Shown here in pieces: positions 5,075 to 41,378 of a stretch of DNA of 41,378 nucleotides. Made by a program: the position numbers and the translations under genes. This DNA is from a virus (Duplodnaviria; Caudoviricetes): IMG/VR virus record IMGVR_UViG_3300005980_000006, positions 1 through 41,378 of that record; one strand, given 5' to 3'. Position 1 is the first letter of the stretch. Every line of letters starts with the position of its first letter. The notes under the pieces were generated by a model that saw only the letters and a program-made list of their open reading frames with translations, ran no database searches and was not told the DNA's origin.

Positions 5075-5117
5075 AATATACGCGAACGAATAATAAAAAA
5101 CAATACGCGAATGGATA
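5075..5117 (-). promoter_or_regulatory. PL promoter with two operators (OL)
   Basis: TTGTTT(5103-5098)-17bp-TATATT(5080-5075); operators ATACGCGAACGAATA 5078-5092 and ATACGCGAATGGATA 5103-5117 match those at cI/cro. Confidence 0.85.
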
Positions 5118-5156
5118 ATTTAATTTATTTTTTTGTTATTAAATAATTCAGAGGTG

Positions 5157-6772: not shown

Positions 6773-6931
6773 ATGGATGAGGATGAGCAAATCGCGGAGT
6801 GGCGTTTAATACAGCAAAAAATGAATCCGGAGGCTTTTGCAATGCTGCTTGATTTAGCGCGAGAATGGTTGAATGACTATCCTCGGGAAAACGAACCGAA
6901 GCTAAGACTCATCGTTGGGTCGCGCCGTTAG
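6773..6931 (+). CDS. Small 52-aa protein, candidate antirepressor
   Basis: AAGG RBS; divergent from lysR, convergent with and overlapping the 3' end of repressor 2. Confidence 0.6.
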   Translation: MDEDEQIAEWRLIQQKMNPEAFAMLLDLAREWLNDYPRENEPKLRLIVGSRR

Positions 6932-7273
6932 CTGCTTGGGTACAGTTGAGCATGTGGTTTTTATTAGCGATTTACCCATGTCATTTGCTTCTCGAAATTG
7001 AGTTAACAAACGAAGTTCTTCAGCAGTCACATACACAAGACTGATATCAGAAGAGTTATTGGGTTTTAAATTTTCGCCAGTCACGATCCAGTCGATGCTA
7101 ACCTTACACGCATTAGCTATTGCAGAAAGATTTTCGATGCTCGGTTGGGATTCGGATTTCAGTATCCTAACTATGCTTGAGTTTGGGACGCCAGACAATC
7201 GGCCTAATTCGGACTGACTTCTGATGCCAGCAAACTTCATGGCGATATCAATTCGGTCAGCTATTGTGGTCAT
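6902..7273 (-). CDS. XRE HTH repressor paralogue 2 (no S24 peptidase domain)
   Basis: IADRIDIAM...SQSELGRLSGVPNSSIVRIL...VSIDWIVTG; C-terminal LVYVTxEE motif shared with cI. Confidence 0.85.
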   Translation of the reverse strand: MTTIADRIDIAMKFAGIRSQSELGRLSGVPNSSIVRILKSESQPSIENLSAIANACKVSIDWIVTGENLKPNNSSDISLVYVTAEELRLLTQFREANDMGKSLIKTTCSTVPKQLTARPNDES

Positions 7274-7352: not shown

Positions 7353-7766
7353 TCAAGAAGCGGGTTTCAGTATTCCTTCTAATTTTTTTCGATCTTTAGG
7401 TAGTTTTGTTGCAGCGGTGTAGATAAGTTTTTGCTGCATTTCAGGTGCTTCTCGGTATGACTGAAGAATATCCATTTCTTCATCAGTTACGTAGACCAAG
7501 CGGATTTTTGGTTGTACTACTTCGACAACTTTCTTCTCAACCTGCTCCATAGGTTCTGCTGGTTGTTCGCCGCTCAGCCATAAGAAGCTCACTCCACAGG
7601 CTGCAGCTAGCTTTTTTAGCGTCTCAGTTTCAGGCCCTCGTTTTCCACCGCCTTTCAGGATCCTATTTACCGTGGGCTGTGGAATTCCTGCCGCAACAGC
7701 TAAGGCTTGTTGCGTTTTATACCCAGCAGTTTTCATTGCCTGATCTAGGCGATCTCCAATATTCAT
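7353..7766 (-). CDS. cI: CI-like immunity repressor (true start MNIGDRL; no peptidase domain)
   Basis: HTH TQQALAVAAGIPQPTVNRIL; divergent from cro across the operator array. Confidence 0.85.
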   Translation of the reverse strand: MNIGDRLDQAMKTAGYKTQQALAVAAGIPQPTVNRILKGGGKRGPETETLKKLAAACGVSFLWLSGEQPAEPMEQVEKKVVEVVQPKIRLVYVTDEEMDILQSYREAPEMQQKLIYTAATKLPKDRKKLEGILKPAS

Positions 7767-7772
7767 GCGTGA

Positions 7773-7849
7773 AATATACGCGGATGAATAAACATCGTGC
7801 AAATTTTCATCCATTCGCGTATTGACTAAATTATCCATTCGCGTATATT
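7773..7849. promoter_or_regulatory. OR region: PRM, PR and three operators
   Basis: Operators 7776-7790 (inverted), 7808-7822, 7832-7846 (TATCCATTCGCGTAT); PR TTGACT-16-TATATT; PRM TTGCAC-18-TATATT on the minus strand. Confidence 0.85.
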
Positions 7850-7857
7850 CCTGTTTT

Positions 7858-8061
7858 ATGGAAAACATAACTTCACTCCTACGGGAGATAAAAACACGGT
7901 CCAGGATGAGCGAAAAGCAAATTGCTGCTCGTCTTGGAGTCTCTCAGCCCACGGTTAACAGAATGTTGCGTGGGCAGGACCGATGCCTTAGCACAACACT
8001 AATAGGCATCCAAAACCTGCATCGCGAAATTTCTACTCAGTCCGAAAATGCAGGGCCATGA
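7858..8061 (+). CDS. cro: Cro-like HTH protein (start MENIT)
   Basis: SEKQIAARLGVSQPTVNRML; recognition helix QPTVNR shared with CI. Confidence 0.85.
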   Translation: MENITSLLREIKTRSRMSEKQIAARLGVSQPTVNRMLRGQDRCLSTTLIGIQNLHREISTQSENAGP

Positions 8062-36618: not shown

Positions 36619-36787
36619 TAAAAGTGAGGAAAAGCGCGTATACAAAGAGGCACTTAAAGAAGTGCTAGAGGAATGGCTTGATAAGCAGTTTGCGTTGTTC
36701 GGCAAGTGGACTGTCACTGGGTTGGTAGCCATGGCATTTGCCGGCGCGGTTTATTTAGCGCTAGCAGGTCAAGGGTGGCACAAATGA
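36611..36787 (+). CDS. Small 1-TM protein, candidate holin (start MADKSE)
   Basis: GGAGG RBS; C-terminal TM; coupled to the endolysin. Confidence 0.7.
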   Translation: MADKSEEKRVYKEALKEVLEEWLDKQFALFGKWTVTGLVAMAFAGAVYLALAGQGWHK

Positions 36788-37320
36788 CACTCGATCAATT
36801 ACATCAAATTTACAAGCTCGCCGGAAAACGTTGCGAGCTTTTTTTTGATCCTCTCACGAAAGCAATGGTGCAATTCGAAATCAACACGCCATTGCGCCAG
36901 TCTGCGTTTCTTGCCCAGGTAGGCCATGAAAGCGCGCAACTTTTTTACACGCAAGAGCTGGCCAGCGGTCAGGCGTATGAGGGGCGAAAGGATCTGGGGA
37001 ACACGCAGAAGGGGGATGGTGTTCGTTATAAAGGCCGTGGTCTTATTCAGATCACCGGTCGCGATAATTACGTCGATGTCATGATCGATCTCGATGTCGA
37101 TTGCGTCGAGCATCCTGAATTACTAGAGCAGCCGGAACTTGCGGCGCGGTCTGCTGCTTGGTTTTGGAAAAAACACGGACTCAATGAACTGGCTGACGAC
37201 CAGCTTTTCACTGAGATTACAAAACGAATCAATGGAGGGCTTAACGGTCAAGCAGATCGCTTGGCATTATACGCACGAGCAAGGCTCGTTTTATTAACTA
37301 ATGGAGGAAAAGATGTTTGA
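36784..37320 (+). CDS. Endolysin, glycoside hydrolase family 19 (start MTLDQ)
   Basis: FLAQVGHES, YKGRGLIQITGRDNY, ITKRINGGLNG. Confidence 0.95.
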   Translation: MTLDQLHQIYKLAGKRCELFFDPLTKAMVQFEINTPLRQSAFLAQVGHESAQLFYTQELASGQAYEGRKDLGNTQKGDGVRYKGRGLIQITGRDNYVDVMIDLDVDCVEHPELLEQPELAARSAAWFWKKHGLNELADDQLFTEITKRINGGLNGQADRLALYARARLVLLTNGGKDV

Positions 37321-37747
37321 AAAATTCTCAGCTTTTATTGGGCTGTTTCGAAAAGGTCAGGAGATTGCAAATGTCGATGTGTGGAAGTCCGGTGGAATCT
37401 CTGCGGCGGCATTGTCTGCTTTTATTCTTGCGATTGTGTCTGTTGCAAGCGCATTCGGAAAAGAAATTCCGATTTCTGCTGATCAGGCAAACGCTATTGC
37501 TGCTGGGATTATTGCAGTCGTTGGCGTCGTGCTCCCTGTTATCACTTCAAAGCGAGCCGGCATCTTGCCAGCGACACCTGGGCAATCAGCTAGCCCAGTC
37601 GATCAACCAAAGCCAGACGATGTGTCAACAGTGGCAACGCCAACAGCAACCGCAGCAAAACAATCAACTTCAGTGTCGCCACTCCGTCAAGCTGCTGACG
37701 GTTCGGTCATCGACACCAGCTGGGAGCAAACCTACCGAGGTGGGTGA
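37313..37747 (+). CDS. 2-TM membrane protein of the lysis cassette (start MFEKF)
   Basis: GGAGG RBS; two hydrophobic helices, Pro/Thr-rich tail. Confidence 0.7.
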   Translation: MFEKFSAFIGLFRKGQEIANVDVWKSGGISAAALSAFILAIVSVASAFGKEIPISADQANAIAAGIIAVVGVVLPVITSKRAGILPATPGQSASPVDQPKPDDVSTVATPTATAAKQSTSVSPLRQAADGSVIDTSWEQTYRGG

Positions 37748-37803: not shown

Positions 37804-37834
37804 CGTCTGAATGTCAATTTTAAGAAAGCTAATC

Positions 37835-38323
37835 ATGAATATTTTATTAATTATTCAATCCTTTATTTCTATTTTCCAAGCTCTCACAAGTCTGATGCCA
37901 CAGGGATCCACGCAAGAGAAGTTTGAAGCGACGATTGTCGGTGTGCAGGGGATTTTCGGTGACATTGCGCACTTGTTGCCCGCTTTGTCGGGGCTGGCGA
38001 CTTCTGTCGACGCGGCTCTGGCTGCACCTGGATCAGTGGGTGGGATTGATTACAAATTGCTTGTGGGGACCTCAATGAACCTCATTAAGAATGTTGAAGA
38101 GTTGATGCCGGCATCACCAGGTGAACAGAAATTTAATGCGGTGGTGTCTGGATTGAGTGTGCTGGTGGGTGATGTCTCGTCATTCATTCCGCAGCTCAAA
38201 GTATTCGCTACGTCGGCGGTCAATGCGCTGCGCGCTGCGGATGTATTTAATGCGTCGCTTGTTACTCCAGATGCGGCGGCTGTGCGTGCTGGTGATGTGC
38301 GCCAAGTGCAGACATCCGTATAG
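37835..38323 (+). CDS. Amphipathic helical protein with internal duplication (start MNILL)
   Basis: Two copies of LMP...KF.A.......GD.....P.L...ATS. Confidence 0.7.
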   Translation: MNILLIIQSFISIFQALTSLMPQGSTQEKFEATIVGVQGIFGDIAHLLPALSGLATSVDAALAAPGSVGGIDYKLLVGTSMNLIKNVEELMPASPGEQKFNAVVSGLSVLVGDVSSFIPQLKVFATSAVNALRAADVFNASLVTPDAAAVRAGDVRQVQTSV

Positions 38324-38377
38324 ACACGTTGCGGTAATACTGAGTAACGTGTGTTGCTCAGTGACTTTTCTTACATT

Positions 38378-38452
38378 TTATTAATTATTAAGTATTTTTT
38401 TGACAAAAAAGAAAATATGATTAAATATACAGAAATTAAATTTTTAATATCT
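38378..38452 (+). promoter_or_regulatory. AT-rich putative moron promoter
   Basis: Perfect TTGACA at 38400-38405 in a very AT-rich tract; -10 ambiguous. Confidence 0.5.
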
Positions 38453-38469
38453 AAATGTGGGGTTTTGTG

Positions 38470-39330
38470 ATGGGAAGGAAAATAAATTTTGACGTGTCAG
38501 GCGTCAACATACGTGTTCACACTGTGCATGAGCCTTTGGAATACGTGGCGTTGTGGGAGGCAATGAATAAAACCCGCTCATATATCGTCCATGCAAATAA
38601 CGCTTTAATGATTGGTGATTTGAGGTACGCTGATAAAGATGATCCTCATGGTTTGATTTTAGGCAATTTTTATCGATTTCTTGAAGTCGATCTTGAAAAC
38701 CCTTGGTTTGATATTGATAAGCATAAAAAAGCTGCAGAGGAAGATGTTGATAAGGTCAAAATACCCGTCGCGCTAAAGCCTAATTTAACTGAAATACCTT
38801 ATGTTTTTAATCCTAAAACACATCAGTTATATTTTGTATCCAAATCATCATTGGCTTCTGCATCACCACATTTAGTGCATAAATTGCTTTCCGCAATATG
38901 TCAAAAGCGTGAGATTTCAGACAAATTTAATAAGGTTGACCTTACGATTCTCACTGATAAGGGTAAAGTCGAGGAAATGTTAAATTGGCCGGAGATTAGA
39001 AATCTTTCGATTAAGATAGAGCGGCCAAATCCAGTTGATCAAGATGATGAGCGCGCGGTTTATGACCGCTTGCGCGCGCGGCGGTTGGAGTCAGAGACGA
39101 CTATATATAAAAAGGCGTCAGGTGAGTCGAGTATAATTCCTGACGAAGAGATGAAGGCTCGTGCAAGAATTGCTGCAAATAATGGATTGGTTGAGGTAAG
39201 CGGGAAGAATTTACAGCGCGTTTCTGACAAGGCAAGTTCATCTGATTTCCCGCTTAAACTTAAAGGGATTTACGATAGTAAGCTTCAACCTTTATTGGAC
39301 GCACTGAAAGCAGTTATTTTAAATATTTAG
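38470..39330 (+). CDS. DUF4747-like protein
   Basis: Recalled family pattern (NIRVH...Y..L, PWFD, P.LKPN, I.RPNP, A..NG.V.V.G); AT-rich moron. Confidence 0.7.
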   Translation: MGRKINFDVSGVNIRVHTVHEPLEYVALWEAMNKTRSYIVHANNALMIGDLRYADKDDPHGLILGNFYRFLEVDLENPWFDIDKHKKAAEEDVDKVKIPVALKPNLTEIPYVFNPKTHQLYFVSKSSLASASPHLVHKLLSAICQKREISDKFNKVDLTILTDKGKVEEMLNWPEIRNLSIKIERPNPVDQDDERAVYDRLRARRLESETTIYKKASGESSIIPDEEMKARARIAANNGLVEVSGKNLQRVSDKASSSDFPLKLKGIYDSKLQPLLDALKAVILNI

Positions 39331-39334
39331 CAAA

Positions 39335-39937
39335 ATGACTAAAAATGATGAAGTAAAAAGTAATCTTCAGATTTTGGTGATGGCTTGGAAAATTACCGGG
39401 GGTTGGAAAGCTGTTGTTTTCTCCGCTGATTTTTGGGTCTCCATTTTTATATGGGTGTTGTGTGCTCCATATTGGGTGAGTTTTCCATGGTGGGACCAGG
39501 TTATTTCGGTTTTTCCAAATGTTCTGGGTTTTACTTTGGGTGGATTTGCAATTTTTTTAGGGTTTGGAAGTGAGTCATTTAAAAGGGTTCTATCGCACGA
39601 AGATGAGATGAAATCGCCATACCTTAGTGTTAGTGCAGCTTTCCTAATATTTTTATTCTTTCAAATCATAACGCTACTATACGCATTCGTTGCAAAATCG
39701 CTGCATATTCCCACCCCACTGTGTTTATCTCCTTATCTTGAGTGGATAAATAAAGCAGAAGTGATCTCGTCGGGCATTGGTTACTTCTTGTCTGTTTATA
39801 GCCTTAATTTAGCGTTTAAGGCTGGAATGAGAGTGTTCAGATTAAGCCGTTGGTATCATGCTTTAATTAATGTTGAGATAGCAGAGGATAAGGTTAAAGC
39901 CGCGGCTAGTGCTTCGACAAAAAACAGCGCAGTGTGA
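39335..39937 (+). CDS. Multi-pass (about 4 TM) membrane protein, partner of the DUF4747-like gene
   Basis: WWDQVISVFPNVLGFTLGGFAIFLGFG motif; 4-nt gap to the upstream gene. Confidence 0.8.
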   Translation: MTKNDEVKSNLQILVMAWKITGGWKAVVFSADFWVSIFIWVLCAPYWVSFPWWDQVISVFPNVLGFTLGGFAIFLGFGSESFKRVLSHEDEMKSPYLSVSAAFLIFLFFQIITLLYAFVAKSLHIPTPLCLSPYLEWINKAEVISSGIGYFLSVYSLNLAFKAGMRVFRLSRWYHALINVEIAEDKVKAAASASTKNSAV

Positions 39938-39954
39938 TCTTTAAGTTTTTGCTA

Positions 39955-40081
39955 TGCTGTCATTTTGTTGTCATTTCAGTGCAAAAACAGCCCCAAATAA
40001 CCCCATTTAATGACAGGTTTAAAATCATAAGTCATTGATTTTAAATGATATTATGGTGTGGTCGGCGGGAATCGAACCCCC
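39955..40081 (-). other. att-like site: tRNA 3'-end fragment, IHF site and arm-type repeats
   Basis: Minus strand GGTTCGATTCCCGCCGACCACACCA (40078-40054); AATCAATGACTTA (40040-40028) fits WATCAANNNNTTR; TGYTGTCATTT tandem 39955-39976 and inverted partial copy 40009-40016. Confidence 0.7.
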
Positions 40082-40084
40082 GGT

Positions 40085-41107
40085 CTATGGCAGTATAGTG
40101 TGCAAGTCTTTCGCTTTTAATTGCACGTACCTGCTCAGCATTTTCCAGCTTCGGTGTCCGGATATGAGTGCTACTTGTTCGATTCTGTATCCCTTTTCAA
40201 ATAACCGGCTAATCCCCTCGTGGCGAAGATCGTGAAAGCGCAGATCTTCAATTTTGAGTGCCTTGCATGCTCTCGGGAATAATGATGACGGTGTGTTTGG
40301 GTTGCCGGGGAAGATCAACGGTTCGTCAGGGATGCGTGGTTGCGCCATCAAGATGTCGTAGCTAGTTCCTAGTAATGGTACTTCCTGATTGTTTCCTATT
40401 TTTTGAGTAGGATGTTTTCTATCTCTGATTATGATGGTTTTATTTTCGTGATCTATATCGTCCCATCTTAGATTTAGTATCTCACCTTGGCGCATGGCGG
40501 TTTCAATAGCAAAAAGGATGAGAGATTCCATCGGAACCTTTTGACGAACCTTCGTCGTGAAGTAAAGGCAGATGTCATCAATTTCCTTTTGCGTTGGGCG
40601 GCGTTCGCGTTCCGCTGATTTTTTTGACACGCCTATATATTTGAGGCTGGCAGCTGCCTTTGATGTTATTTCTATATCAATTGGAATTTTCCAAAGTTCT
40701 TTCACAATGCGAAGTACAGTGCCCAGATGTGCAAGGTCAACGAGAATCGTCGGACCCTTAACAGTTTTTGCGCGGGCGTGAGCCCAAGTTGTTAGCAATT
40801 CTTCCGTTAAGGCATCGAGAGATAAATTACCATAGAGCTTTTTCCAATATTTGAGGGACGTTTCCTTCGTTCTGCCGATCGGAGTGAGTGACGCAATCTC
40901 TGTTAGGTAGCGATCAATAACTTTTCCCAAGGTAAATCCAGCCAAGCTTCGGATATCTTTGAATGACATTGCATCAATACTAGCTTCGACTTCCCGCGCC
41001 CAGGCGAGTGCTAAAGACTTTGTTTTGAATGACTTGGTGATAGACTTATGGCCTTTGCGGCGAATGTCCGCGACCCACGAGCCATTTCGTTGACGGATTG
41101 ATGCCAT
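40085..41107 (-). CDS. int: Tyrosine integrase, dusA-associated type
   Basis: TAMRQGEI, RKHP, FHDLRHEG, SGHRSWKMLSRY; divergent from dusA. Confidence 0.95.
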   Translation of the reverse strand: MASIRQRNGSWVADIRRKGHKSITKSFKTKSLALAWAREVEASIDAMSFKDIRSLAGFTLGKVIDRYLTEIASLTPIGRTKETSLKYWKKLYGNLSLDALTEELLTTWAHARAKTVKGPTILVDLAHLGTVLRIVKELWKIPIDIEITSKAAASLKYIGVSKKSAERERRPTQKEIDDICLYFTTKVRQKVPMESLILFAIETAMRQGEILNLRWDDIDHENKTIIIRDRKHPTQKIGNNQEVPLLGTSYDILMAQPRIPDEPLIFPGNPNTPSSLFPRACKALKIEDLRFHDLRHEGISRLFEKGYRIEQVALISGHRSWKMLSRYVQLKAKDLHTILP

Positions 41108-41115
41108 AGTTTCCC

Positions 41116-41141
41116 TAATTTCTCCGTAATTTCTCCGTAAT
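41116..41141. repeat. Tandem 11-bp repeat TAATTTCTCCG, probable integrase arm-binding sites
   Basis: Two exact copies plus a partial one between int and dusA. Confidence 0.6.
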
Positions 41142-41198
41142 GGGTTCGTAAAATAGCATAATATTGATTAAGTTTAAATAAGATTGTAAGTTTTAAAA

Positions 41199-41378
41199 AT
41201 GAAGCCTGTCATAGAGAAAAGCCCCGTATTGCCACCTAGACGGGTTTCTGTTGCCCCGATGCTCGATTGGTCAGATCGCCATTGTCGCGAATTCCACCGT
41301 CATATTACTCGCCATACTTGGTTGTATACCGAGATGGTGACGACGGGTTCATTGTTGCATGGCGATGTTCAACGCCAT
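41199..41378 (+). CDS. dusA: tRNA-dihydrouridine synthase A, 5' part (truncated by window edge)
   Basis: Manual translation [60 protein letters not shown]. Confidence 0.93.

Follow-up and report, generated by a model that had tools for sequence, protein, structure and literature searches.

In the window that we have analysed, i.e. the whole 41,378-nt stretch of viral DNA, two adjacent genes are located on the plus strand: gene A (38470..39330), which encodes a DUF4747 protein of 286 aa, or of 291 aa if translation begins at the ATG at 38455, and gene B (39335..39937), which encodes a membrane protein of 200 aa; the gap between the two ORFs is 4 nt. Upstream of the pair, on the same strand, are a GH19 endolysin gene (36787..37320; E 2e-5, marginally below the Pfam cut-off) and, after it, a weak holin-like gene (37301-37747), while a tyrosine integrase gene (40085..41107, minus strand) is located downstream, so that the pair does occupy the position between lysis genes and integrase that an earlier note on this DNA had given. 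A 170-aa ORF with an internal repeat (37811-38323), located 3′ of the holin-like gene, has zero matches in Pfam, PHROG, NCBIfam and PADLOC.

A terminator-like hairpin (38338..38363, plus strand), identified by consensus match only, with an 11-bp stem and a T-rich tail, stands between the lysis genes and the pair, where it would close the upstream lysis-region transcript. The pair is preceded by an AT-rich leader (38378..38469, plus strand; the GC content is 0.25 over 38324-38469), which contains a perfect −35 hexamer, TTGACA, at 38400-38405, without a consensus −10 downstream; a sigma-70 promoter scan returned three sites, all on the minus strand, versus 5.2 in shuffled sequences, and zero on the plus strand. 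The hexamer of the promoter that had been claimed for the pair is therefore present, while the promoter itself is suggested rather than established, because the scan gave no plus-strand site with an acceptable −10. The GC content of positions 38378-39937 is 0.381, versus 0.469 for the window, and is lower than that of every non-overlapping 1560-bp segment of the contig (mean 0.473, minimum 0.397); over a length of 1.56 kb, no other part of the prophage is as AT-rich as the pair and its leader, and the earlier description of the pair as an AT-rich, tightly coupled two-gene unit stands.

The window as a whole represents a tailed temperate phage, with repressor-like genes, primase, terminase, portal, capsid, tail, endolysin and integrase present. 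The integrase gene is divergent from the 5′ end of dusA, a fragment of which is found from position 41199 onward, to 41378; the two together indicate a prophage integrated at dusA, in the divergent layout described for dusA-associated integrases (PMC4482086). The 21-bp att repeats that were sought in the window were not located. After the integrase stop codon, the minus strand carries at 40054-40085 a sequence that resembles the 3′ end of a tRNA or tmRNA, with a T-arm-like stem ending in ACCA; its Rfam tmRNA match is weak (E 0.096, far below the cut-off), the Rfam scan of 38200-41378 has zero matches at gathering level and ARAGORN finds zero tRNA or tmRNA genes. This element may be the relic attachment site of an earlier integrase, the prophage now being at dusA. 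At the other end, positions 1-135 resemble the 3′ part of a tnpB element of the IS200/IS605 family; the next feature is a small ORF on the minus strand (130-435), which has no PHROG match and may be an excisionase. Two adjacent repressor-like HTH genes (6902-7273 and 7353-7868) are located about 30 kb from the pair; inverted repeats of 16-20 bp, at 5101-5122 and 7809-7846, bracket the region of these two genes and are possibly operators.

Gene A matches the Pfam family DUF4747 (PF15931) with E 9.6e-54 and 183 bits, against a cut-off of 27, over model positions 1-254 of 257; the DUF4747 call, which had been made from the letters alone, is thereby confirmed, and the gene also matches phrog_10040. 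PADLOC has no match for either gene of the pair, and the PADLOC 2.0 and NCBIfam models do not match any of 150 gene A relatives. The likely start is the ATG at 38470 rather than the one at 38455, because the database protein begins there, GGGG is located just upstream and the homologues align there (96% of 150 at this Met). The family comprises 1024 clusters at 50% identity with E <=0.001, and 386 at 1e-30, and is sparse, with two of 401 and two of 400 genomes in two samples, each of which includes the centre genome. Homologues of either gene, or of a second family member used as query, are absent from 50,697 GenBank phage records, and a fused longer form is absent from 7996 candidates of 567-2000 aa, which is weak evidence. 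Among solved structures, a sequence search with gene A alone returns nothing, and with the profile, one chance-level match. The family alignment has invariant residues at Y25, G65, H118, N187 and G239, which in our judgement recall no familiar catalytic site, a conserved acidic loop at positions 189-194 and conserved K/R positions; the family median pI is 7.1, so that composition gives no sign of a basic cavity for DNA binding.

The comparison of the gene A model (AlphaFold2 from 150 sequences, pLDDT 96.5) with known structures points to a RexA/RdgC fold. Lambda RexA is the first Foldseek match (8TWQ, E 9.5e-7 and 7.6e-5; TM-score 0.29), followed by RdgC; if the hinge joining the two domains had a different angle, this would be compatible with the low TM-score over the whole chain. 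With VIA-align, RexA (Z 8.2, rmsd 4.5 Å, 135 residues) is the sole chain with Z >=8 among 996 chains, the next match being 1.1 Z lower; the matches that follow are CENP-N/Chl4 and then Iml3, which are named as relatives in the RexA structure paper (PMC11077077). We regard the match of the model to RexA as moderate, the fold being common to the non-defence RdgC and kinetochore proteins. A homodimer of gene A is also predicted, with a score of 0.47 versus 0.00 for the best control, 100% agreement of the contacts between runs and partner pLDDT of at least 84; of the solved proteins used for calibration, 20 of 30 homodimers and one of 23 monomers attain this mark. In the predicted interface, an antiparallel strand pair at about 203-225 (strand 208-214) extends the β-sheet, resembling the β10-β10 sheet of RexA; the prediction may have passed because gene A resembles RexA or RdgC, whose dimers have been solved.

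Gene B matches phrog_20580 and zero Pfam families. We have found 130 homologues, and those that are named are mostly from Betaproteobacteria; NCBIfam gives one chance-level match for 120 gene B relatives. The model is all-helical (pLDDT 93) and has no Foldseek match at E <=0.001, while its structure search in the Atlas gives TM below 0.5. The family hydropathy outlines four segments, near 25-45, 57-76, 95-123 and 141-167, and the family mean K/R counts are 3.7 at the N-terminus, 0.5, 2.5 and 1.2 in the successive loops and 5.6 at the C-terminus; these counts fit the positive-inside rule and thus predict an N-in/C-in protein, with its two termini and its central loop in the cytoplasm. The four-segment topology that had been proposed therefore holds for the family by hydropathy and by the positive-inside pattern, and is less clear in the present copy, where the fourth segment is weak, below the Kyte-Doolittle cut-off of 1.6. 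The second segment is Gly-rich and nearly invariant, and conserved charges are located in the central loop (E80, K83) and in the C-terminal helix (R166, R169, R172). The central-loop mutants R70A and D73A of Sbash gp31 abolish defence (PMC6426596) and may be compared by analogy with the central loop of gene B, bearing in mind that the two proteins do not align.

A holin role for gene B has been considered and rejected: there is no PHROG lysis match, a terminator is located between gene B and the lysis genes, and gene B travels with DUF4747 and not with endolysins.

The association of the two genes has been followed in 107 loci selected through gene B, which comprise the complete set of 27 from viral contigs and the 80 best of the 84 metagenome loci; one of the 107 is an identical copy of the window. 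DUF4747, in some loci partial or truncated, is located directly upstream of gene B on the same strand in 100 of the 107, and in 77 of 82 after dereplication. Among the seven misses, five start within 140 nt of the contig end, one (L098) retains a DUF4747 remnant cut by an IS, and one (L119:906-1224) has gene B alone, after a HTH repressor-like ORF and a 99-aa ORF, in a contig that ends inside the gene. Conversely, gene B is present in all eight loci selected on gene A (seven distinct places), and also in the locus L203. Among endolysin-selected phage loci the pair occurs in none of 80, of which 28 have 3.5 kb downstream and which come from distant phages, a weak control.

This near-obligate coupling equally fits a toxin-antidote-like dependence, as would be expected if the antiviral effector were the DUF4747 protein, sequestered or tempered by its membrane partner until infection; such an arrangement resembles the Butters pair, where gp30 alone defends and gp31 attenuates it (PMC7542560). 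We find it unlikely here: both genes are needed in lambda, Sbash, CarolAnn, RexABpp and Sucellos (PMC7542560, PMC12894663, bioRxiv 10.1101/2024.07.02.601686), and the invariant Gly-rich second helix of gene B would suit a packed oligomer over a simple tether. The locus with gene B alone is compatible with this arrangement and with a RexAB-type one.

In 67 of 70 loci the GC content of the pair is lower than that of its flanks, with a median difference of −0.097. In a Pfam scan of neighbouring genes (the 150 nearest of 264 candidates, from 58 loci outside the viral collection), a restriction-modification, McrBC, GmrSD or OLD-type gene is found within about 1.4 kb in nine of the 58 loci (L045, L051, L056, L066, L082, L083, L087, L102 and L103), a raw count without a background rate; in many other loci of this set, integrases, transposases or phage genes adjoin the pair. 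In the viral loci, for which 70 hand-picked neighbours from 22 loci have been considered, the pair may lie amid head genes, behind Q or lysis genes, next to integrases or behind repressors, and therefore behaves as movable cargo. In one locus (L023) the neighbour of the pair is a protein IV-like assembly gene of filamentous phages, so that inovirus-like elements are also among its carriers. In another (L054:1878-2750), an RdgC gene is located directly upstream of the DUF4747 pair, so that neighbouring genes encode proteins sharing one fold.

These neighbourhoods also bear on a role outside defence, in which the pair, tethered to the membrane, would bind DNA and modulate either the lysis-lysogeny switch or recombination, in the manner of RdgC. 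Such a role finds encouragement in RdgC as the second-best fold match, in the effect of RexA on the lambda switch, which it biases (PMC11077077), and in three loci (L037, L101 and L109) where a CI-like repressor is located directly upstream of the pair; we nevertheless consider it very unlikely, given that the pair turns up in phages unrelated to one another, at many positions that do not correspond, and also on plasmids and next to restriction genes, nearly always AT-richer than its flanks, that in the window about 30 kb separate it from the repressor genes (6.9-7.9 kb), and that RexApp has no effect on its own repressor promoter (PMC12894663).

Among the known systems, the closest in layout is RexA/RexB of phage lambda (PF15969/PF15968; 8TWQ), which shares with the pair the A-then-B order, the prophage location and a membrane partner of four segments; like gene A, RexA is cytoplasmic, of about 280 aa, with the RexA/RdgC fold and a strand-mediated dimer, both of which are predicted for gene A. 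The lambda order cI-rexA-rexB also recurs in those relatives of the pair that directly follow a CI-like repressor. The differences are that RexB has 144 aa and gene B 200 aa, and that lambda RexAB belongs to the cI operon, whereas the pair in the window comes after the lysis genes and has its own leader. The RexA and RexB Pfam models and the PADLOC RexAB models do not match the pair, whereas lambda RexA and RexB match their own models strongly.

The same architecture is seen in CarolAnn gp44/gp43, Sbash gp30/gp31 and Butters gp30/gp31, from actinobacterial hosts, and the Sbash and Butters pairs fill the same slot between lysis genes and integrase; their soluble proteins have 370-403 aa, versus 286 aa for gene A. 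Weak HHpred matches of the soluble proteins of these three phages to DUF4747 are reported, with 69% probability and E 140 for Butters (PMC7542560, PMC6426606, PMC6426596). By hmmscan, PF15931 matches none of the eight RexAB, Sbash, CarolAnn and Butters proteins, and hhalign of the pair against RexA/RexB, Sbash 30/31, CarolAnn 44/43 and Butters 30/31 gives probabilities below 1%; for the three actinobacterial-host phages, these are at most 0.2% against single sequences, and 0.12% and 0.03% against shallow four-sequence profiles. The pair is thus RexAB-like by predicted fold and by layout, while in sequence it belongs neither to the RexAB nor to the CarolAnn/Sbash/Butters families.

Two proteobacterial RexAB-like pairs have been tested experimentally, RexABpp of P. 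putida (PMC12894663) and Sucellos SclA/SclB (bioRxiv 10.1101/2024.07.02.601686), and like the present pair they combine a RexA-like soluble protein with a membrane protein, theirs being predicted to form pores. Sucellos is described as often prophage-borne and with its own promoter (bioRxiv 10.1101/2024.07.02.601686), and is modelled in DefenseFinder (PMC13656390, PMC13612085); RexApp-His, at 37.5 kDa, is larger than the 286-aa gene A protein (PMC12894663). DUF4747 is not named in the main text of either the Sucellos or the RexABpp paper, and the RexABpp locus (PP_5643/PP_5644) was not found in viral contigs by a primer-derived pattern. The gene A/B family may already be Sucellos or RexABpp, both of which are set beside it here through their descriptions.

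DUF4747 operons have themselves been catalogued: 17 "DUF4747/CarolAnn" operons, 16 from Acinetobacter and one from a Pseudomonadales genome, are reported downstream of the immune regulators capKS, which are DNA-damage-responsive (PMC13373217). By the label of that paper, which is bioinformatic, these operons belong to the same Pfam family as gene A and are treated as known or predicted immune operons; capKS genes are beside them, and none is next to the copy in the window. In Salmonella, a hypothetical gene of 606 bp has been reported to follow a DUF4747 gene (PMC11181664). Our literature search, with most subscription journals outside its coverage, has brought up no experimental test of any protein assigned to PF15931. 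The novelty that had been thought possible is accordingly largely removed, since RexAB-like systems are already characterised (RexAB, CarolAnn 44/43, Sbash 30/31, Butters 30/31, P. putida RexABpp and Sucellos are of the same kind) and DUF4747 operons already carry the label of PMC13373217.

The placement after DNA-damage-responsive capKS (PMC13373217) also counts against a simple entry exclusion, in which the membrane protein would block DNA injection by related or unrelated phages, the soluble protein would be accessory and the infected cell would survive. A membrane moron beside lysis genes would suit such a role, and single prophage membrane proteins that block DNA injection are known (Charlie); we judge it highly improbable, as it leaves both that placement and the RexA-fold cytoplasmic dimer, encoded in 100 of the 107 loci, unexplained.

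In the Kiwa system, KwaB is a DUF4868 protein and the membrane gene comes first, whereas the soluble gene is first in the present pair. The Kiwa (KwaA/KwaB) HMMs give no match in PADLOC or Pfam, and Kiwa structures are absent among the Foldseek and VIA-align matches listed, and may nevertheless share a fold with the pair. From the earlier proposal of a sensor paired with a membrane effector, the likeness to RexAB is thus retained, and that to Kiwa finds no support.

We consider it probable (roughly 70%) that the pair is a RexAB-type abortive-infection system, by analogy with the characterised pairs: a dimeric RexA-fold sensor, gene A, with an inner-membrane effector, gene B, that would damage the membrane and halt the infected lysogen. 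The RexAB-like reading is supported by the RexA fold, the predicted dimer, the near-obligate coupling and the mobile and defence-rich neighbourhoods; the RexB-like role of gene B and the anti-phage defence by the pair are what we infer from these. The pair would be expressed in the lysogen, as in lambda RexAB, RexABpp, Sbash, CarolAnn and Sucellos, where the gene A dimer would sense the infecting phage. By analogy, this would involve non-specific DNA binding, which has been demonstrated for RexA, Sbash gp30, CarolAnn gp44 and RexApp (PMC11077077, PMC12894663), and the trigger could be either a complex of phage DNA with protein or one particular protein of the phage. Gene A would then switch on its four-helix membrane partner, and the activated gene B protein would form a pore, damage the membrane and stop the infected cell. 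The candidate contact surfaces between the two proteins are the acidic loop of gene A (189-194) and, in gene B, the helix with R166, R169 and R172 and the loop with E80 and K83.

The pair would not be a new kind of immunity, and the copy in the window has no unusual feature compared with its relatives. As a tentative proposal, which we hold to be possible rather than probable, DUF4747 and its membrane partner may form a large Rex-like immunity branch (more than 1000 clusters at 50% identity) that is separate from RexAB, CarolAnn/Sbash, RexABpp and Sucellos and is missed by PADLOC and NCBIfam, and in which the acidic loop of gene A and the basic cytoplasmic helix of gene B would mark the contact from sensor to pore. 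If this is true, the sensor-to-pore contact would become directly testable. The deep alignments and confident models offer clear residues to mutate, in order to see how a RexA-fold protein activates its membrane partner. If the pair defends, an annotation gap would be filled, since gene B has no Pfam family and both genes are without a PADLOC or NCBIfam model, and a widespread proteobacterial family would join the Rex-like exclusion systems.
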